Positions 3,946-62,421 of a DNA stretch of 64,000 nt are shown piece by piece. Made by a program: the position numbers and the translations under genes. The stretch comes from Okeania sp. SIO1H2. Lineage in GTDB: Bacteria > Cyanobacteriota > Cyanobacteriia > Cyanobacteriales > Microcoleaceae. The first letter of the stretch is position 1; each line of letters begins with the position of its first letter. Below the pieces are notes generated by a model. That model saw only the letters and a list, made by a program, of their open reading frames with translations, did not search any database and was not told where the DNA came from. The DNA is taken from contig NZ_JAAHGA010000036.1 of NCBI RefSeq assembly GCF_010672685.1, positions 7,773 to 71,772 of the forward strand, written 5' to 3'.

Positions 3946-4250
3946 GCATTGAAGAAGGAAGAAGGAAGAAGAAAGAAGGAAGAAGGAAGAAAGAGGAGAT
4001 ACTAAAAAGTTGACAACCCTCGAATGATACCCAACCAATTCTAGATACCGTGGGTGAGGTTGGGGTATTAAACCCATCAGGGAAAAGATAAATTTGATAG
4101 TGCGAGCATCTTGCTCGCGAATATTTTAGTATCGCTAAAAAAGAAGGAAGAAGAAAGAAGGAAGAAGGAAGAAGGAAGAAAGAATAAGAGAAAAGTGGAT
4201 GGGGATACTAAAAAGTTGCCACGACTCTCGATCACTCCCCAACCAATTGT
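3946..4250. repeat. STRR-like (GAAGGAA)n heptamer arrays flanking a 'GGTGGGGTATTAAACCCATCAGGGAAAAGATAAATTT' element; family copy 1 of 4
   Basis: Two GAAGGAA runs (3946-3995 and 4141-4185) bracket the conserved motif at about 4058-4098. Related motif copies occur at 12204-12240, 27806-27845 and 42290-42322. Confidence 0.7.
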
Positions 4251-4315
4251 TCCTTCTGCCTTCGTTTATGATATTCTTTTTGTTAATTACTATTGCCAAT
4301 TATTAGAATTACCCT

Positions 4316-4702: not shown

Positions 4703-5012
4703 AAAAGGCGATTAATAATTAATAATTCATAATTAATAATTGCCTCTTATTTTCAAGTAGAAATAATTATTGATGGTTTACTTCCCCTCCTGGGAGTTGC
4801 TATGGGAACATTGCATGCAACGTCCCTACTGCCACTCAAGAAGGAGTTTGAGTACCCATCCATTTTTTCCTTGCTTCCTTCTTCCTTGCTTCCTTCTTCT
4901 TTGCTTCCTTCTTCCTTCTTCCTTCTTCCTTCTGACTTCTTCCTTCTGACTTCTTTCTTCTTCCTTCAAATAAATGCTAGGATTGTTCATAAAACAATTA
5001 ATTTAGAGTGTA

Positions 5013-12065: not shown

Positions 12066-12150
12066 ATCTTCTTGAAGAAGGCAGAAGGCAGAAGGCAGAA
12101 GGCAGAAGGCAGAAGGCAGAAGGCAGAAGGCAGAAGGCAGAAGGCAGAAG
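12066..12150. repeat. (GAAGGCA)n heptanucleotide tandem array (~11 units) followed by a GGGGTATTAAACCC element
   Basis: Perfect heptamer repetition, with the conserved motif at 12204-12240. ORFs 12007..12192 and 12048..12242 are repeat artefacts. Confidence 0.85.
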
Positions 12151-12305
12151 GGAAAATTGTTTGGGGTTAGAATCCCAAACAATTTTAAGCACCCCCGTTG
12201 ACGGTGGGGTATTAAACCCATAAGGGAAAAGATAAATTTCAAATCAGATGAGGAGAACTTTTATTAGAAAAATTTGCTGCTCCTCCGGAAGATGTCTTAG
12301 GAGAA

Positions 12306-26570: not shown

Positions 26571-27671
26571 ATGCAAACACTTGGCAATGAAGAAAGCAGC
26601 ACCATGTCTACAACTAACGACAGTGGAGTTTTCTGGACACCTGTTTGGCGATCGCTAGGCTGGTATGTTGAGGCCACTGAAGAAGAAGGTGCAGCTTTAT
26701 TAGGAGGTAATATCAGGTTCAAAGACCTCTCTGGGCAATTACTAGGTGCCCATGTAGCCCATGCTGGTTTAATCATGCTGTGGGCAGGTGCCATGACACT
26801 GTTTGAGCTATCTCAGTTTGACCCCAGCGTACCAATGTACGAGCAAAAACTAATATTACTACCTCATCTAGCAACATTAGGTATTGGTATCGAAGCAGGG
26901 GTACAAACAATCGACACCTATCCCTACTATGTCATCGGTATGCTGCATCTCATCAGTTCTGCTGTTTTGGGAGCAGGAGGTATCTACCATGCAGTTTTAG
27001 GGCCGAAACAGCTTGATGAGAAAGGTTTTGGCTACGACTGGGAAGATGGCAACAAGATGACTACTATTTTGGGTATTCATCTAGTGCTGTTGGGGGTGGG
27101 AGCATCTCTATTGGTCATTAAAGCAACGGTTTTAGGTGGTATTTACGATCCACTAATAGAACAAGTAAGGTTAATACAGCCTAATCTCGATCCCGTAAGA
27201 ATTTTCGGTTATCTGTTTGGCTTTAGTCCTAATGGTTGGACAATTACTGGCATGGCTAGCGTAGATAATCTCGAAGATGTGGTCGGTGGTCATGTCTGGG
27301 TGAGCCTACTCTGCACTGTTGGTGGTCTATTTCACATTATTTCCAAACCTACGGGTTGGGCAAAACAAATACTAATTTGGTCCGGAGAGGCTTACTTGTC
27401 TTACAGTTTAGGGGCACTTGCGATCGCAGGATTTAGCGTAGCTGTCTTTATCTCCACCAACGAAACTGTTTATCCTAGCGTGTTTTATAGTCCTATTGGC
27501 AGCGACTCTGTGCGAACTGCTCTTGCTACCGTTCATGCTGGATTAGGTTTCCTAGCTTTGCTCGGACATTTATGGCACGCTTACCGAGCGCGAGCTGCTA
27601 CTCGTAAAGTATTTTATGGAACGTTCTTTGACTTTATGGCTAAGAATGTTACACCTATTACACCTGCTTGA
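26571..27671 (+). CDS. IsiA/CP43-family chlorophyll a-binding protein (lacks the CP43 large lumenal loop)
   Basis: '[21 protein letters not shown]', and 'HLVLLGVGA' and 'HAGLGFL' helices with conserved His. 366 aa. It is the first of three tandem paralogs. Confidence 0.8.
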
Positions 27672-27862
27672 ATAGAAGTCAAAATCTAAGTTCATTGAAG
27701 AAGGAGACAGGAGACAGGAGACAGGAGGAAAATTACATGGGGATAGTCTTCGACAAGCCACTCCGCGTCTACGCTCCCCCAAGTAATGCGTGAACATCGC
27801 AAGTGACGGTGGGGTATTAAAGCCATAAAGAAAATGATAATTATATAAGGAGAACAATAGTA

Positions 27863-28891
27863 ATGACTGTCGTAACAGATGAGAATCTGCAAATCCCATG
27901 GCGGGCAGGTAATGCTCGGCTTGTTAACCTATCTGGCAAGCTATTGGGCGCTCATGTAGCCCATGCTGGCTTAATTGTACTCTGGGCTGGAGCTATTACT
28001 TTGTTTGAAGTTGCCAACTTTGATTCCTCCCTACCAATGTACGAACAGGGCTTAATTGTACTGCCTAATCTAGCCCGCTTGGGATTTGGAGTTGGTGAAG
28101 GAGGTGTCATTGATACCTACCCCTACTTTGTGATTGGGGTACTGCATTTGATTAGTTCGGCGTTTTTAGGAGCAGGTGGTATATTCCACGCTCTCAGAGG
28201 TCCATCTAAACTAGAAGACAAATTTTCTTTCTTTGGCTATAGCTGGGATAATCCAGGTAAAATGACAACTATCCTGGGTATCCATCTAGTCTTATTAGGA
28301 ATCGGAGCATTTTTACTTGTAGCAAAAGCGATTGCATTTGGAGGGTTATACGATCCAGTAGTTCAAAATTTACGAGTAATATCAAATCCCACTCTAAATC
28401 CTATTACCATTTTCGGCTACCTATTTGGTACAGAAGGACGTTTCTGGCTGGCTGGTGTTAACTCTTTAGAAGATGTAGTAGGCGGTCACATTTGGATTGG
28501 TGCTATCTGCATTTTGGGTGGTATCTGGCATATTCGCACCGTACCCTTTGACTGGGCTAAAGGCTTATTTGTCTGGTCAGGAGAAGCATATTTGTCTTAC
28601 AGTATTGGCGCAGTCAGCTTAATGGCATTTGTCGCAACATTGTTTGTGTCCGTTAACTCCCTGGTATTTCCCACAGAATTTTTCGGACCAACTTTGACTC
28701 TGGTGTTCGATCGCTTTCCTGTGTTTGTTAGTACTGATGGAGCCTTGACTGCAAGAGTATGGTTGGCAAATGCTCACTTCTGGTTAGGATTTTTCTTCCT
28801 GCAAGGACATATATTCCACGCCCTCCGGGCAGCAGGTTATAGCTTCACCGAAGGCAGAGTAGTCACATTTACAAGAGGTCAAGTAAGTTAG
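27863..28891 (+). CDS. isiA: IsiA/CP43' iron-stress-type chlorophyll-binding protein
   Basis: '[31 protein letters not shown]' and the 342-aa length are canonical for IsiA/Pcb. Confidence 0.8.
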
Positions 28892-28893
28892 TT

Positions 28894-30459
28894 ATGACTG
28901 TAACTAAATCAAATCCATTGAGGTTTTTAGGCTTTTCAACAGATAATAATGTTGATGTTGCGAACTATGTTAGTGATTCCCAAGAACCTTATTCTTGGTG
29001 GGCAGGTAATTTTCGCTTTGTTAACTTGTCTGGAAAATTATTGGGAGCGCACATTGCTCATGCAGGGTTGATCGTACTCTGGACTGGAGCAATGACTCTG
29101 TTTGAGCTATCAAAATTCGATCCTAGTCTACCCATGTACGACCAAGGACTGATTTTGCTGCCCCACATGGCGACTCTGGGTATAGGGGTTGGCGCAAATG
29201 GTGAAATTATTGATACTTATCCCTACTTTGCTATTGGTGTTATCCATCTCGTTAGTTCAGCAATTCTAGGCGCTGGTGGCATTTTCCATGCCGTGCTTGG
29301 ACCTGACAAACTTGATGAAAAGGGATTTGGCTATCAGTGGAATGATGGCAAGAAAATGACTACTATCCTTGGTATTCATCTACTGCTACTGGGGATGGGA
29401 GCATTTTTGCTAGTAGCCAAAGCTATGTATTTTGATGGTTTGTATGACCCGGCGATCGCCAATGTGCGACTGATTACTGAACCCACTCTCAACCCACAGA
29501 CTATCTTCGGTTACCTCGTCGGTATCACCCCTGATGGCTGGACGTTGAAGGGTATGGCTGCTGTCAACTCTTTAGAAGATGTAATAGGCGGTCACATTTG
29601 GATTGGTAGTATCTGTATTCTGGGTGGTCTCTGGCATATTAATACTGCTCCTACAAAATGGGCTAAGGGTCTTTTTGTCTGGTCTGGAGAAGCATATCTT
29701 GCTTATAGTCAGGCTGCTCTAGCTTACATGGGCTTTTTCGCTGCCTACTTTGTCTGGGTGAATGATACAGTCTATCCTTCAGTATTTTATGGTCCTGTAG
29801 GTATGACTAATGTTGATGGTACAATTACTCCTCGTACCTGGTTGATGTTGTTCCAACTCATCTTTGCCTGTCTGCTACTGGCAGGTCACTTTTGGCATGG
29901 TCTCAGAGCTAGAGCGATCGCCAGTGGATTTGTCTTCAGTAATATGAAGTTCAATCCCGGTGCCCTCTATGGAGACACTCAGTTTAATAACGAATCTCTA
30001 GTGACTGGTATTGTACAGCCTTTCCAGAACAATCCTCAATTGGGTAATTTGGCAACCCCAATTAATTCCAGTCAGCTTACCATCACTTGGGTTAAGAACT
30101 TGCCAATTTACCGCAATGGTTTATCTCCTATTGCACGGGGTCTAGAAATTGGCATGGCTCATGGCTACCTATTATTAGGGCCTTTTCTCAAGCTCGGACC
30201 ATTGCGTAACACCGACCAAGCTCTTCTGGCTGGAGGTGGTAGTGCATCTGGCTTAGTAGTGATTTTAAGTATCTGTCTGTTTGTTTATGGGGCGGTAGTG
30301 TTTCAAGGTTCTAGAGAACCAAGAGGCGTTTTACCGGAGAACCTACAAACTTATCAGGAATGGAGTTTGTTTACCTCTGGTTTTCTCATTGGAGGACTAG
30401 GCGGTGTAGTTTTTGCCTGCTTTATCCTTATAGAAATCGGGCGAGCGGGAATTTTGTAA
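28894..30459 (+). CDS. IsiA/CP43-like chlorophyll-binding protein fused to a C-terminal PsaL-like domain
   Basis: N-terminal '[31 protein letters not shown]'. The C-terminal ~170 aa read '[30 protein letters not shown]', the PsaL signature, plus two extra TM helices. Confidence 0.8.
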
Positions 30460-30672
30460 CTTTGTTTGCTTGAGCAGGGGAAGAAGGGCAGAAGTTAATA
30501 TTCCTAATTTTTATCAGGAAAGGCAGAAGGCAGGAGGCAGTAGGCAGAAGGGAATTCTGACTCGCCTGTTACCTTTAGGGGAACAAGGGTATAAAAACCC
30601 CATCCAATTGTTCCTTCTGCCCTCTGCTCTCAGCATAGCTGCCTTAGTTCATCGGATATTTACTATGTTTCC

Positions 30673-38358: not shown

Positions 38359-39825
38359 ATGCCTAATCAATATTTATCTCCAAAAAATCTGTTAAAATCA
38401 AAATTTTTATTAAAATTTATTGGATTAGTAGGAACACTGGTAATTAATTGGAGTTTTACTCGGCCAGTTTTTGCAGCCTTCTTAACAAACTGGTTTTTTG
38501 ACCCAGACAATAATCAACTCCAGTTTACTCTCCCATCAGGTACAGCTCCTAGTTTTTCTTTAGAAAATAAACCAGCTCGTCTAATTGTATACATTCCCAA
38601 TACAGAGGTTAGTGTAGATGTGACTGAGTTATATCCGGCAGGTTTGGTGCGCCGAGTTAGTCTTTCTCAAGAGCAACCAGAACAAGCAAAAGTTATTATA
38701 GATTTTGCTCCAGAAGTGGTTATCTCTAGCAAACAAGTACAATTAGAACAGGTTGAACCACAGGAAAATAGTTGGCAGTTACGTTTACTTATGGCTGAAG
38801 GTGCATTCTCAGAGCCACCAGAGATAATTTCAGATCCACAGGCAACTGAGCCAGAAACTACAGAAGTAGAAAATTCTCAAACTACTGCTTCACAGGCAAC
38901 TGAGCCAGAAACTACAGAAGTAGAAAATTCTCAAACTACCGAAGAAGAAGAGGATAATCAAACTTCTACTCAACCAAAGCAAGATAGTGTAGGTTTGTTA
39001 GACACTGCTCCGGAACAAGAATCTCCTTTACCAAACCCAGGGCCTTCTGCGGAGCCTTCTGTACCATTTTTGGTCATTCCCACTGACAGGCCAGGTAGGT
39101 TTAGGTCTCCAATAGTAGATGCTTTGAGTAATGAAAAGCCGGAAACGGAAAGTTCTCAGGTTGAAGAAACACCAACACTTGAGACTAGAGAGGAAGAAGA
39201 GACAGTTATTTCACTTCCTCCAGAGTCCATAGAAGAATCAAAAAATACTACAGAGTCAGTAAGTGTGGTTACTTTTGGAGAACCTTTGCCTGGATCGTCG
39301 GGGCCAAAACAATCTGAAGATGATGCTTCTATATTAATAGAGGAAGGAGAAGTTATCGGTTTAATTTATCCTTCTCAAGATGTTAGATTACCACGAGATA
39401 TTGAGATACAGGAAGTTTTGCTGCTCAAAGAGGCGATAGTTGACGAATCTGGTAGAGTTATAGTTCCAGCTAGAACACCTGTAGTTGGTGGTTTTGATAC
39501 TACCACTCGCGGAAGTAAATTTATCGCCAGGGCTATATATGTAGATGAGCGCTTAATTCCTTTTTCTGCTGAATCAGAATTACTCCGAGGCCATCCTAAT
39601 GTAAATGAAAAAGTTTTGGCTGCCAGTAGCGCTGGTGGGGGGTTAGGATTATTACTGTTAACGGGTTCAGGTTTTGGTTTTCTGGCAGGAGCAGCTCTTG
39701 GTGCTGGTAGTGTTGTTCTTACTTCTCCTCGTTCTGTTACTCTAGAAGGCGATATTGTTATAGAAGTTCGTGTAGTTAAGGATTTACCTCGTTCTAGGTT
39801 TTACGAGGATATTGGCAGTTTTTAG
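38359..39825 (+). CDS. Secreted or membrane-anchored hypothetical protein with an N-terminal AMIN-like domain and an acidic Thr/Glu-rich repeat
   Basis: N-terminal hydrophobic segment. 'FFDPDNNQLQFTLPSGTAPSFSLENKPARLIVYIPNTEV' resembles the AMIN domain. A 48-nt direct repeat encodes 'QATEPETTEVENSQTT' twice. Confidence 0.4.
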   Translation: MPNQYLSPKNLLKSKFLLKFIGLVGTLVINWSFTRPVFAAFLTNWFFDPDNNQLQFTLPSGTAPSFSLENKPARLIVYIPNTEVSVDVTELYPAGLVRRVSLSQEQPEQAKVIIDFAPEVVISSKQVQLEQVEPQENSWQLRLLMAEGAFSEPPEIISDPQATEPETTEVENSQTTASQATEPETTEVENSQTTEEEEDNQTSTQPKQDSVGLLDTAPEQESPLPNPGPSAEPSVPFLVIPTDRPGRFRSPIVDALSNEKPETESSQVEETPTLETREEEETVISLPPESIEESKNTTESVSVVTFGEPLPGSSGPKQSEDDASILIEEGEVIGLIYPSQDVRLPRDIEIQEVLLLKEAIVDESGRVIVPARTPVVGGFDTTTRGSKFIARAIYVDERLIPFSAESELLRGHPNVNEKVLAASSAGGGLGLLLLTGSGFGFLAGAALGAGSVVLTSPRSVTLEGDIVIEVRVVKDLPRSRFYEDIGSF

Positions 39826-39827
39826 GA

Positions 39828-40125
39828 GATGGGGGGATGGGGTGATGGGGTAATGGGGTGATGGGGTGATGGGGTGATGGGGTGATGGGGTGATGGGGTG
39901 ATGGGGGGATGGGGGGATGGGGTGATGGGGTGAAAAAGACACCTAGAAACAAACATCTATTGCACAGTTTTAGGTATGCCACTCCACTACTGGATTGACT
40001 TCTCCCCCACTCCCCTACTCCCCTACTCCCCTACTCCCCCACTCCCCATGAGGAAACGGAGACACGGGGACACTCCCTCTCCGCGTCTCCGTGTCTCCCC
40101 CTCTCCGTGTCCTCAAGAACCCCTA
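39828..40125. repeat. STRR-like octamer/heptamer arrays, (GATGGGGT)n then (CCCCTACT)n and a GAGACACGG-type repeat
   Basis: About 13 tandem GGGGTGAT units at 39828-39932, and CCCCTACTCCCCTACTCC at 40005-40050. ORF 39794..39982 is an artefact of the repeats. Confidence 0.85.
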
Positions 40126-41492: not shown

Positions 41493-42530
41493 GTGTTGGT
41501 AGTGCCTAATTTATCATTTGGCAAAATTGCAAAGTTTTCGGTTTCTATCAGAATAGGAATTTTTATTTTAACATTATTTCTGGGTTGGATACCACTAGCA
41601 GCACCAATATATTTTTTTGGGCGAGATGCAAATTTAGCGAGTATATTGGCGATCGCTCTATTATATATAGAGTTTATTATTTTAGTCCAGTTTTGGGGAA
41701 AGAAAGTTTATCAACAACCACACCTACTACGTCACTACGGTTTAGAAATAAGTAGGGTCAACTTTCAGAATTTTTTTCAAGGTTTAGGAATAGGTTTAGT
41801 TAGTCTGTTTGGTTTTTTTATTTTAGAAACGTTTCTGGGATGGGTAATATGGCAGTCACCTTCAGCAAAGTTACCTCAATTTATTCTGGAAGGTTTATTG
41901 GTATCTGTGGGTATTGGTTTTGCTGAGGAGTTACTATTTCGAGGGTGGTTATTGGATGAGTTGGAGCGAGACTACAAACCAAAAGTAGCTTTGTGGGTAA
42001 GTAGTATTGTGTATGCCTTACTACACTTTATTAAACCAGTTGAGGAAATTTTGCGGATTTGGTTTCAGTTTCCTGGTTTGGTGTTGTTAGGTTTAATCTT
42101 TGTTTGGGCAAAACGTGGATCAGTTGAAGAAGGAAGAAGGAAGAAGGAAGAAGGAAGAAGGCATCCCCCCTTGCCCCCCTTTGAAAGGAAGAAGGAAGAA
42201 GGCATCCCCCCTTGCCCCCCTTTGAAAGGAAGAAGGAAGAAGTGGATGGTGACTCAAAACCCAACTAATTATCAACACCGTGTAGATAGCGGGGTATTAA
42301 ACCCAAAAGAAAAAGATAAATTGACTTATTATCAACAACAATTATTGGGTTTGCCTATTGGTATTCATGCTGGTTTTGTTTGGGGTTATTACATTATTAA
42401 TGTGGGTGGTTTAGTTAAGTATTCTAGTGTAGTTGGAGAGTGGATAGTTGGGATAAATGGTAATCCTTTAGCAGGTGTAATGGGGTGGTTTTTTTTAGGA
42501 GCGATCGCTTTGTTTATTCAGCGAAAGTGA
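41493..42530 (+). CDS. CPBP-family intramembrane metalloprotease (CAAX protease / Abi-like) carrying an in-frame repeat-element insertion
   Basis: Motif 1 'EELLFRGWL', motif 2 'YALLHF' and motif 3 'GIHAGFVWG'. Residues 'VEEGRRKKEEGRRHPPLPPFERKKEEGIPPCPPLKGRRKKWMVTQNPTNYQHRVDSGVLNPKEKDKL' are encoded by (GAAGGAA)n plus the GGGGTATTAAACCC element at 42120-42322. Confidence 0.7.
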   Translation: MLVVPNLSFGKIAKFSVSIRIGIFILTLFLGWIPLAAPIYFFGRDANLASILAIALLYIEFIILVQFWGKKVYQQPHLLRHYGLEISRVNFQNFFQGLGIGLVSLFGFFILETFLGWVIWQSPSAKLPQFILEGLLVSVGIGFAEELLFRGWLLDELERDYKPKVALWVSSIVYALLHFIKPVEEILRIWFQFPGLVLLGLIFVWAKRGSVEEGRRKKEEGRRHPPLPPFERKKEEGIPPCPPLKGRRKKWMVTQNPTNYQHRVDSGVLNPKEKDKLTYYQQQLLGLPIGIHAGFVWGYYIINVGGLVKYSSVVGEWIVGINGNPLAGVMGWFFLGAIALFIQRK

Positions 42531-46974: not shown

Positions 46975-47640
46975 ACCTGCCATCTACCACTTAAGGAAGG
47001 ATAAGGACAATAAATCATATATTCAGGAATTAGGGATTTTTGAGTTCTAAACGCTACATATCTGTAACGTTATAGTTTTTGTTTCCTATATATAGTGTCT
47101 TTACCTAAATTCTGATAATCTGACACCTACCACTAAAGCAAAGGTAGGGATAATAAATCATATATTTAAGAATTAGGGATTTTTAATTTCTAAACACTAC
47201 ATATCTATAACGTTATAGTTTTTGTTCTCTATATATAGTTTCTTTACCTAAATAGAGTAGGAACAATTAATCATAATATTCAGGAATTAGGGATTTTTGA
47301 GTTCTAAACACTACATATCTGTAACGTTATAGTTTTTGTTTCCTATATATAGTGTCTTTACCTAAATATCGATCGCCTAACACCTACCACTAAAGCAAAG
47401 GTAGGGATAATAAATCATATATTTAAGAATTAGGGATTTTTAAGTTCTAAACGCTACATATCTGTAACGTTATAGTTTTTGCTCTCTATATATAGTGTAC
47501 TTGCCTAAATTTTGATAATCTAACACCTACCACTAAAGCAAAGGTAGGGATAATAAATCATATATTTAAGAATTAAGGATTTTTGAGTTCTAAACACTAC
47601 AGATATGTAACGTTATAGTTTTTGCTCACTATATATAGTA
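46975..47640. repeat. Tandem array of ~5 copies of a ~135-bp unit (satellite-like; not CRISPR)
   Basis: The unit '...AATTAGGGATTTTTGAGTTCTAAACGCTACATATCTGTAACGTTATAGTTTTTGTTTCCTATATATAGTGTCTTTACCTAAAT...ACACCTACCACTAAAGCAAAGGTAGGGATAATAAATCATATATTTAAG' repeats head-to-tail at about 90% identity with no unique spacers. Confidence 0.8.
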
Positions 47641-61428: not shown

Positions 61429-62421
61429 TTAATTAGCGGGTGTCAAAATAATTACTGTTCGCTGATTGACATCAGCAGCAGGATCGCTACCAGGGAGTGG
61501 TTGAGAAAATCCCATTCCTTTGCCAACAACCTGATATGGTAAATTCTGCTGTTTCAAATATTCGACTACTGCATTTGCTCGGTCTTGAGATATTTCTTGG
61601 TTTAACTGAGCACCACCGACCTGAGATGTATGACCTTCAACTCTAATCGTAACTTTATTAGGATCGTATTCTTTAATTTCTGAGATGAGACTATTTATAG
61701 TTTGCTCTGCTTGGGGAGATAATTCAAATTCATCAAATCCAAATTTTACTTGACCTAAAGTTTTGGCTTTACTCAAATTCTTGCCTTGTGGTTGAGATGT
61801 TGTAGATGTGTTAGTAGAGGTAGCAGCAGAAGTTTCGATTTCTGGCGATGATGTAGCAGTTGGTTGTGCAGTTCCAGATCCAGAGGTAGTAGTAATATTA
61901 GTAGTAGGTGATACGGTCGCAGATGGAGAAGTAGATACTGAGCTAGTAGTTGTTTCAGTGTCTGTGGTTTCTGTAGTTGTAGTTATAGACTCTGCTTCAG
62001 TGGTTGTTGTATCAGTTGTAATAGGAGTGGGAGACTCTGCTGTAGTAGTTGTTTCGGTTTCTGTGGTTTCTGTAGTTGTAGTTATAGACTCTGCTTCAGT
62101 GGTTGTTGTATCAGTTGTGATGGGAGTGGGAGACTCTGCTGTAGTAGTTGTTTCGGTTTCTGTAGTTTCTGTAGTTGTAGTTATAGACTCTGCTTCAGTG
62201 GTTGTTGTATCAGTTGTTTCAGTTTCTATTCTTTGTACTTGAGTAACTTCTGTTTTATCATCTACATCTTCAGTTTCAGTCAATTGAACATCAATAGTAG
62301 GTTTTTCAAAAGCTTTAGGACCTGCAAATGCCCAAGCACAAATCATCATAAAGCCCATACATCCTGCTAAGATACTAGGACTTAAAGTTTGTTGGTGATG
62401 TATTTTTTTTTCAGCAGTCAT
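61429..62421 (-). CDS. OmpA/MotB-family peptidoglycan-associated protein with triplicated Thr-rich linker
   Basis: C-terminal OmpA-like 'VTIRVEGHTSQVGGAQLNQEISQDRANAVVEYL'. An N-terminal TM. Three near-identical ~40-aa repeats 'TTTEAESITTTTETTETETTTTAESPTPITTD' from a ~120-bp DNA tandem repeat at 61850-62215. Confidence 0.7.
   Translation of the reverse strand: MTAEKKIHHQQTLSPSILAGCMGFMMICAWAFAGPKAFEKPTIDVQLTETEDVDDKTEVTQVQRIETETTDTTTTEAESITTTTETTETETTTTAESPTPITTDTTTTEAESITTTTETTETETTTTAESPTPITTDTTTTEAESITTTTETTDTETTTSSVSTSPSATVSPTTNITTTSGSGTAQPTATSSPEIETSAATSTNTSTTSQPQGKNLSKAKTLGQVKFGFDEFELSPQAEQTINSLISEIKEYDPNKVTIRVEGHTSQVGGAQLNQEISQDRANAVVEYLKQQNLPYQVVGKGMGFSQPLPGSDPAADVNQRTVIILTPAN

Follow-up and report, generated by a model that had tools for sequence, protein, structure and literature searches.

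Small repeats that insert in frame within genes, and are translated as tolerated segments, are exemplified by the Rickettsia palindromic elements (RPE) and by further intragenic repeats of a MITE-like kind, among them ERIC and the MITEb and MITEe elements of Anabaena PCC 7120 (PMC10969869). The Okeania locus described here, which lies in a 64-kb stretch of DNA (hereafter the window, meaning all 64,000 nucleotides of it), resembles the RPE in its effect; a relation in sequence would not be expected. A small, non-autonomous, hairpin-forming repeat in the ~150-200 nucleotide (nt) range sits in frame in an unrelated, conserved open reading frame (ORF) that is still under purifying selection; the extra surface segment that it would add upon translation is compatible with the fold of the host protein, and its presence or absence differs between relatives. 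Whereas RPEs often lie in ORFs and encode a conserved peptide, only one of the 11 known copies of the Okeania family is found in an ORF. The family further differs in having a variable 5′ heptamer array, in having no terminal inverted repeats, and in that its canonical copies are closed in every frame.

Heptanucleotide repeats have a separate history in filamentous cyanobacteria, where short tandemly repeated heptanucleotide sequences (STRR) were reportedly described by Mazel and colleagues in 1990. The units of STRR1-3 are CCCCAGT, TTGGTCA, and CAACAGT, and their hosts are heterocystous. Like STRR, the Okeania repeats are tandem 7-nt units occurring at dozens of sites, mostly between co-oriented genes; TRF detected dozens of period-7 arrays in the window. 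Unlike STRR1-3, however, the Okeania units are of NNNNAGG types (GAAGAAG, AGGAGAC, AGAAGGC), the host is a non-heterocystous member of the Oscillatoriales, and the arrays belong to a larger element whose ends are fixed. Judged by sequence, they are the same kind of repeat as STRR but not the same families. A second parallel is offered by the small dispersed repeats (SDR) of Nostoc punctiforme, which Elhai and colleagues are said to have described in 2008 as 21-27-nt pieces nested in heptamer arrays and forming hairpins with compensatory changes. Compared by description only, the Okeania insert is similar in carrying a 27-nt C-rich piece, GCATCCCCCCTTGCCCCCCTTTGAAAG, within its heptamer array (42161-42187 and 42202-42228), but differs in that a BLAST search of the window and 88 loci returned this adjacent pair and, beyond it, a single sequence of loose similarity, GATCCCCCCTAGCCCCCCTTGAGAAGGGGGG at L018:6123, with no further copy in either set. 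A C-rich 18-mer, CCCCCCTTGCCCCCCTTT, occurs twice in the window, both times within the 41-nt duplication of the insert, against 0.03 occurrences expected by chance. The particular G-rich heptamer repeats studied in PMC4692102 are under-represented in coding sequence, whereas one of the Okeania arrays lies in coding sequence.

With MITEs such as Nezha of Anabaena and Nostoc, the Okeania family shares a short, non-coding, multi-copy, structured make-up and insertion polymorphism at orthologous sites. Its termini, TTGAAGAAGG and GATAAWTT, are however not inverted copies of one another, and no target-site duplication is present at the one filled/empty pair compared. Because both of these MITE hallmarks are absent, the units are not those of STRR, and dispersal of the 27-mer is unsupported, the element is not placed in any named family; nor was a prior description of this heptamer/three-hairpin family found in the searchable literature. 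Its features mark the insert as a small repeat element of a known kind, fossilised in frame within a gene and outside any named family.

The host gene and the anatomy of its insert

The host gene encodes a predicted membrane protein of the CPBP, or Rce1-like, type. A Pfam search placed PF02517 (Rce1-like) on residues 129-206 (E = 2e-13, 50.8 bits against a cut-off of 22.4), the match ending where the insert begins. Both motif 1 (EExxxR) and motif 2 (FxxxH) are present, with E145, E146, R150, and H178 invariant in 90 homologs. N303 is nearly invariant in the same set, giving motif 3 a spacing of H-x10-N, compared to the textbook CPBP spacing of H-x3-N/D. The closest solved fold is the CPBP-type SpdC (6u0o_A), a weak match (probability 0.89, target-normalised TM 0.54, E = 0.9), and a sequence profile of the host protein found no relevant match in the PDB. 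The protein is 100% identical to WP_287242873.1 (P0121, from an unclassified Okeania) and 95-100% identical to its counterparts in O. hirsuta and several SIO strains; its NCBI homologs start at the GTG at 41502. The gene is preceded by clpS and, further upstream on the opposite strand, by a DUF3172 gene, and is followed by a cytochrome P450 gene on the opposite strand. The clpS and DUF3172 arrangement is kept in other Okeania contigs, and the downstream gene varies. In a promoter/terminator scan around the host gene, the sense strand within the insert did not rise above background. The features of gene and insert are:

41493-42530, + strand: host gene, CPBP/Rce1-like (Abi, "lysostaphin resistance A-like"), an ORF of 345 aa for an eight-helix membrane protein
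41925-41942, + strand: CPBP motif 1, EELLFR (E145, E146, R150), invariant in the 90-sequence alignment
42024-42026, + strand: CPBP motif 2 histidine, H178 (ALLHF), invariant in the same alignment
42124-42322, + strand: inserted element, 199 nt, full length by alignment to the 10 other copies of the family; the site is empty in L014/L001 and in 12 more orthologs
42124-42133, + strand: conserved family 5′ terminus TTGAAGAAGG, the 5′ end of 8 of the 10 other copies
42126-42161, + strand: heptamer (STRR-type) array, GAAGAAG × 5.1 (TRF), translated EEGRRKK
42144-42242, + strand: perfect 41-nt tandem unit × 2.4 (TRF, 100% match), made up of a 27-nt C-rich piece and two heptamers
42161-42187, + strand: C-rich 27-mer GCATCCCCCCTTGCCCCCCTTTGAAAG, copy 1, within the heptamer array, read HPPLPPFE
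42202-42228, + strand: C-rich 27-mer, copy 2, in a frame different from that of copy 1, read IPPCPPLK
42240-42290, + strand: remnants of decayed hairpin 1 (AAGTGGATGGTGA...CCCAACTAATT) and hairpin 2 (CACCGTGTAGATAGCG), as compared with canonical copies
42291-42304, + strand: hairpin 3 and signature motif GGGGTATTAAACCC
42305-42322, + strand: element 3′ tail AAAAGAAAAAGATAAATT, from the element consensus against the empty site in L014/L001
42366-42368, + strand: CPBP motif 3 histidine, H292 (GIHAGFVWG), invariant in the 90-sequence alignment, in frame and 3′ of the insert

An earlier note on this DNA, made from the letters alone, had proposed that a repeat element lies in frame between CPBP motifs 2 and 3 and that the ORF reads through ~200 nt of repeats. 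Both statements are borne out: orthologs exist that have no insert, the 199-nt insert matches a repeat family end to end, from TTGAAGAAGG at 42124 to GATAAATT at 42322, and the ORF at 41493-42530 is stop-free through the heptamer array, the 41-nt duplication, and the GGGGTATTAAACCC motif. The 41-nt duplication is restricted to the close relatives of the window (the O. hirsuta cluster), being present in all seven members of the 90% cluster, and the alleles L002-L013 are free of it. An example of a peptide predicted to be encoded by the insert is K.WMVTQNPTNYQHR.V.

The dispersed repeat family

The family to which the insert belongs was defined from three intergenic copies in the window and seven clear cyanobacterial copies from a pattern scan of metagenome contigs. 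With the CPBP copy it numbers 11 members of 127-199 nt, the other 10 all intergenic. Those in the window confirm the occurrences near 4058, 12204, and 27806 that had already been assigned to the same family:

3949-4094, + strand: intergenic family copy, heptamer unit of the GAAGGAA type
12072-12238, + strand: intergenic family copy, heptamer unit AGAAGGC × 11, perfect 13-bp hairpin 1
27695-27842, + strand: intergenic family copy between two isiA-like genes, heptamer unit AGGAGAC

The signature motif GGGGTATTAAACCC occurs at 4062, 12206, 27811 (one mismatch), and 42291, always on the + strand; with up to two mismatches allowed there are four occurrences in the window against 0.46 expected, a number that none of 100 shuffles reached. 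From 5′ to 3′, a family member consists of the conserved terminus (replaced by TTAAGAAGG in L089 and L095, and cut by the contig end in L099), an array of NNNNAGG heptamers whose unit varies by copy (AGGAGAC, AGAAGGC, GAAGGAA, or AGGAGTC), three hairpins, and a 3′ tail. Hairpin 1 has the form AAAATTACATGGGG...CCCCAAGTAATTTT, with compensated arms AAAATTGTTTGGG/CCCAAACAATTTT in the copy at 12072-12238; hairpin 2 is CACCGT-GTAG-ACGGTG, and hairpin 3 is GGGG-TATTA-AACCC. The tail reads AyAAAGAAAATGATAAWTT, an ending that the CPBP copy shares with all 10 others. Likeness among copies stops exactly at both termini, outside of which the flanking DNA is dissimilar, and the CPBP insert matches the family from its first to its last base (42124-42322). 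The predicted fold energy of a canonical copy lies between -27 and -31 kcal/mol. A few pairs in the family consensus fold are changed on both sides, which is weak evidence with only seven sequences. Canonical copies also carry GGAGG, 8 nt, then ATG, and pieces of other kinds are nested in the copies L091, L092, and L099.

A search of ~1.4 Mb of related loci with the non-repetitive module of the insert found it only in CPBP genes, apart from one 16-nt match in a Trichodesmium MAG. Five non-cyanobacterial contigs from the metagenome pattern scan were taken as chance or an unrelated motif; four of the five have a common upstream CCGCnGCAAG hairpin, and none of the five has an Rfam family match or an adjoining transposase or TnpB-like gene. 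No partner transposase was identified for the heptamer/three-hairpin family, and a search for an IS200/IS605-like logic, in which a fixed target directly precedes the left end, yielded no evidence of one.

Origin and evolution of the filled site

Alignment with insert-less CPBP orthologs, which the earlier note had put forward as a check, makes the insertion plain. Measured between the conserved anchors VLLGL and LGLPIGIH, the loop DNA is exactly 108 nt in each of 14 insert-less orthologs, which come from other Okeania, Dapis, Trichodesmium (including IMS101), and Microcoleaceae MAGs, compared to 288 nt in the window. The net gain relative to the empty site is 180 nt, or 60 codons, which corrects the ~65 added residues counted previously. 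Other insert-bearing alleles measure 195, 195, 237, 243, 255, 285, 285, and 354 nt from anchor to anchor. In a neighbour-joining tree of the flanking protein sequence, with the insert removed, the insert-bearing alleles are monophyletic and the empty-site L014 is their sister, pointing to one insertion event, in the ancestor of a single Okeania sub-clade. The empty sites of L001 and L014, which contain GGTATTA, were considered as secondary deletions; this was ruled out, since the loop in both alleles is precisely as long as the ancestral one (108 nt) and can be aligned, codon for codon, with those of Trichodesmium and Dapis. No secondary clean loss of the insert was seen within the insert-bearing clade.

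Since a 199-nt element produced a net gain of only 180 nt, ~19 native bases must have been replaced or overlapped. The native loop is purine-rich (GGGAAAAAG...) and resembles both a heptamer and the element tail; in particular, the tail (AAAGAAAAnGATAAWTT) resembles the native empty-site sequence AGGAAAAAATCAGATAAAATT of L014/L001. The 3′ junction therefore falls within sequence common to both and has no placement to the base. A reading of the tail AAAAGAAAAAGATAAATT as purely native loop sequence was rejected, as the 10 other copies share it. At the 5′ junction the window has GGATCAGTT, L010 has GGT, and the other alleles have GAT. The likeness of tail and target, together with the missing target-site duplication, suggests, for the single filled/empty pair available, homology-assisted illegitimate recombination or template switching, and not cut-and-paste transposition.

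The frame has been kept throughout the subsequent history of the insert. At least nine alleles of 195-354 nt, as well as a 6-nt indel variant, are all multiples of three and stop-free. Of the six frames of the window element only that of the gene is open, the other two sense frames containing four and five stops, and canonical copies have at least two stops in every sense frame. Of four canonical copies examined, two nonetheless keep the frame used by CPBP open up to the final few codons; at that point the gene copy has one base fewer than the consensus (CCCA[C/T]AAAG), by which a stop is avoided. In most alleles the first heptamer array counts six imperfect units, as against 12 in L011, a change in length by multiples of three units. 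Most alleles come from a protein database, which biases them toward intact ORFs, but the frame is equally intact in all five species representatives with the insert that tblastn recovered, and no truncated high-identity homolog was present among the 120 matches listed.

Within the insert-bearing clade, the flanks have a mean dN of 0.026 and a mean dS of 0.115 (dN/dS ~0.22), as is typical of codons under purifying selection; the 57-nt insert module has a mean p-distance of 0.12 across nine alleles, close to the flank dS, so that, by this comparison, the insert DNA is drifting at about the synonymous rate. The fold energies of CPBP copies range from -7 to -19 kcal/mol. The window copy, at -11, has hairpins 1 and 2 broken, alleles of the L010 and L013 types have lost one hairpin-1 arm to an 11-nt deletion, and L009 alone among the CPBP alleles has kept all three hairpins. 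The CPBP copy thus looks dead as an element, its hairpins decaying. Extra partial units of array plus hairpin-1 module are found in L002/L009, L004, L005/L010, L007, and L012, and all units of the first two heptamer arrays in L007 are GAAGATG, a uniformity that points to concerted evolution. In Okeania SIO2B3, a second heptamer array lies beyond the stop codon, and the segment between the arrays is repeated fivefold in tandem, with a period of 300-343 nt and 79-96% identity, which is direct evidence that the arrays drive unequal recombination. Across seven close strains the insert is constant except for one 6-nt indel and a few substitutions.

Place in the fold and competing readings

AlphaFold, run with the 90-sequence alignment from which all model results are taken (mean pLDDT 83.7, compared to 49.5 with 27 sequences), predicts a confident eight-helix core, mostly above 90. 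The insert residues 231-280 have a pLDDT of 49-62 and are placed between helix 183-223 (helix 6, continued in the model across the EEGRRKK repeat) and helix 286-304 (helix 7), which carries H292. In the topology check suggested by the earlier note, the insert is modelled as a loop, at low confidence, between helices 6 and 7; the cytoplasmic side is probable by charge. The native helix 6-7 loop is the most positively charged of the protein, with seven K/R in ~17 residues, and it is mainly this charge that places the insert loop probably on the cytoplasmic side. With this loop excluded, K + R number 12 inside and 5 outside for cores judged by eye, and 6 inside and 4 outside for AlphaFold helix limits.

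We consider it quite probable that a dead copy of the element, inserted once in the CPBP gene, is translated as a tolerated extra loop. A non-autonomous element would have inserted a single time into the short, K/R-rich helix 6-7 loop, in the ancestor of one Okeania sub-clade, its 3′ end joining the gene within the look-alike stretch and leaving no target-site duplication. The copy would have landed in, or been selected for, the sole frame open through the element, and by lying in the open frame of the gene it would be transcribed and translated as part of the protein. The added loop, charged, proline-containing, and probably disordered, would leave the catalytic helices free to pack, and may well be functionally neutral. 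From then on it would be dead DNA, with decaying hairpins and a sequence that drifts roughly as fast as synonymous sites do. Its length would be altered by slippage, by unequal crossing-over, and by small inserts nested within it (in the window lineage, a 27-nt C-rich piece came to lie in the array, and a 41-nt tandem duplication followed), and selection on the host gene would purge variants that break the frame or add stops. Of the three fates envisaged for the insert in the earlier note, a tolerated mini-insertion in a loop, inactivation of the protease, or an excisable intervening element, it is the first that holds.

An acquired role for the insert is unlikely, whether as a regulatory or interaction loop, as a contingency locus switched ON and OFF by heptamer slippage, or as a site of internal initiation at M252 producing a helix 7-8 fragment. 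A mild acquired function would be consistent with the retention of the insert throughout the clade, slippage by a single heptamer can shift the frame, and a Shine-Dalgarno-like, purine-rich run, AAGGAAGAAGTGGATG, precedes the in-frame ATG of M252 in the insert by ~9 nt. Such a role is however at odds with near-synonymous drift of the insert, with a peptide that varies freely between alleles, with a first array steady at six imperfect units in most alleles, with near-identity of the insert in the seven close strains, and with a search in which no out-of-frame allele was found. A more speculative and quite improbable extension holds that the family is still mobile without a transposase, its 3′ tail (AAAGAAAAnGATAAWTT) pairing with a look-alike target, perhaps via RNA or single-stranded DNA, and that the CPBP copy was possibly co-opted as a heptamer-slippage switch or as an internal start for the helix 7-8 fragment.

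That the insertion made a pseudogene of the gene throughout the insert-bearing clade, its open frame being coincidental, is very unlikely. The Pfam alignment does reach only to the insert, which separates catalytic motifs 2 and 3, but the catalytic residues are all retained, and AlphaFold predicts the core with confidence while leaving the insert looped out. Inactivation is contradicted by the purifying selection on the flanks (dN/dS ~0.22) and by the open frame of at least nine length-variant alleles, in an element whose other sense frames are full of stops.

Excision at the DNA level, as an intron at the RNA level, or as an intein at the protein level is scarcely plausible, even though cyanobacteria have developmental DNA excision elements and introns, and defined ends and, in canonical copies, hairpins might be expected of such an element. 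At 199 nt, and with no separate ORF, the insert is too small for a recombinase or an intein; the window has no match to intron or RNA families at the Rfam curated score cut-offs; the junctions of the insert lack the intein residues, Cys/Ser on the N side and His-Asn on the C side; and the hairpins are decayed in gene copies. Removal before translation would, moreover, give no reason for a conserved, stop-free frame. Expansion in place of native loop codons (GGGAAAAAG...) by slippage, with no element inserted, deserves next to no credence, since for all the purine-rich likeness of the native loop to a heptamer and the element tail, slippage is unable to create 85 non-repetitive nt of dispersed-family sequence together with both termini.

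Read as a fossil element tolerated in a loop, the locus is a natural experiment, with one insertion, at least nine diverged alleles, and an empty-site sister allele for comparison. It presents a membrane enzyme that tolerates 29-85 extra residues in one loop, and host-gene selection filtering a repeat whose 7-nt unit would normally shift the frame. Beyond the gene itself, it delimits a family of fixed-ended repeats, found in Okeania and in related marine filamentous cyanobacteria, and it carries a warning for annotation: heptamer-rich, low-complexity stretches in cyanobacterial proteins may be element fossils and not native sequence. As selfish DNA that a working gene tolerates, the insert makes a clear case, though one with precedents.

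Alleles of the CPBP locus in Okeania

In Okeania sp. SIO2B3 (NZ_JAAHGH010000068), the CPBP gene, a gene for an Rce1-like membrane protein, has the segment that begins with its internal heptamer array and ends with its stop codon in five tandem repeats (L011:10593-12335), with a period of 300-343 nt and an identity of 79-96%. These repeats are bounded by a second heptamer array situated directly after the CPBP stop codon, and the same region is carried by a further CPBP-locus contig, L006. The arrangement resembles the Trichodesmium tandem array, which includes a duplicated 3' part of Tery_0080 (PMC4143802). Another allele, from ENA contig k141_256278 (L007:76-1179), has GAAGATG in place of GAAGAAG in the heptamers of its first two arrays, encoding the peptide DGRWKME; here a single substitution has spread across two heptamer arrays.

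Nested pieces and the minus strand of the insert

Other small pieces are nested within the heptamer arrays of family copies on three metagenome contigs, paralleling the C-rich 27-mer of the window's in-gene array; examples are:

L099 copy (1-60): ACCCACCCCTAACCCCTCCCAGGAGGGGAA, inside the heptamer array
L091 and L092 copies: CTATACT/TCGATACT, yielding 14-nt units

On the minus strand of the window insert, the complement of the C-rich 27-mer together with heptamers gives a terminator-like score at 42148-42221 (-), reading AGGGGGGCAAGGGGGGATGCCTTCTT followed by a T/C-rich tail. This stretch lies downstream of a converging P450 gene, at a distance of ~540 nt.

Other repeats and similar motifs

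Further conspicuous repeats occur in the window at 39828-40111, 46977-47639, 61944-62217 and 38837-38939, comprising octamer arrays (GATGGGGT x13 and CTCCCCTA x6), an AT-rich tandem array (143/257-nt), a 99-nt repeat (x2.8) and a 54-nt perfect repeat (x1.9).

The motif GGGGTATTAAACCCA...GATAAWT is also present in non-cyanobacterial metagenome contigs, in intergenic positions preceded by a CCGCnGCAAG-type hairpin:

L096:3067-3099
L097:2741-2773
L100:9882-9911 (-)
L093:4944-4974 (-)

These four sites have neither an Rfam match nor a nearby transposase, and they could be chance occurrences or represent a motif not yet described.

Canonical and rearranged element copies

Three isiA/CP43'-like genes stand in tandem at window 26571-30459. 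The minus strand of each gene matches the antisense RNA IsrR strongly, at 119-131 bits, and the spacer between genes 1 and 2 contains one element copy. Canonical copies (window 27722-27790; L090, L092, L094) carry GGAGG, 8 nt and an ATG that starts a mini-ORF of 9-18 codons within hairpin 1, a feature not conserved in window copy 12072-12238. Partial or rearranged relatives lie at:

Window 4141-4260
Window 30520-30625
Window 4826-4967 (-)

They consist of a heptamer array and a AAGTGGATGGGGA module, after which comes an array end in inverted orientation, CCAATTGTTCCTTCTGCC. Inverted composite structures are thus another form that the repeat-element family takes.
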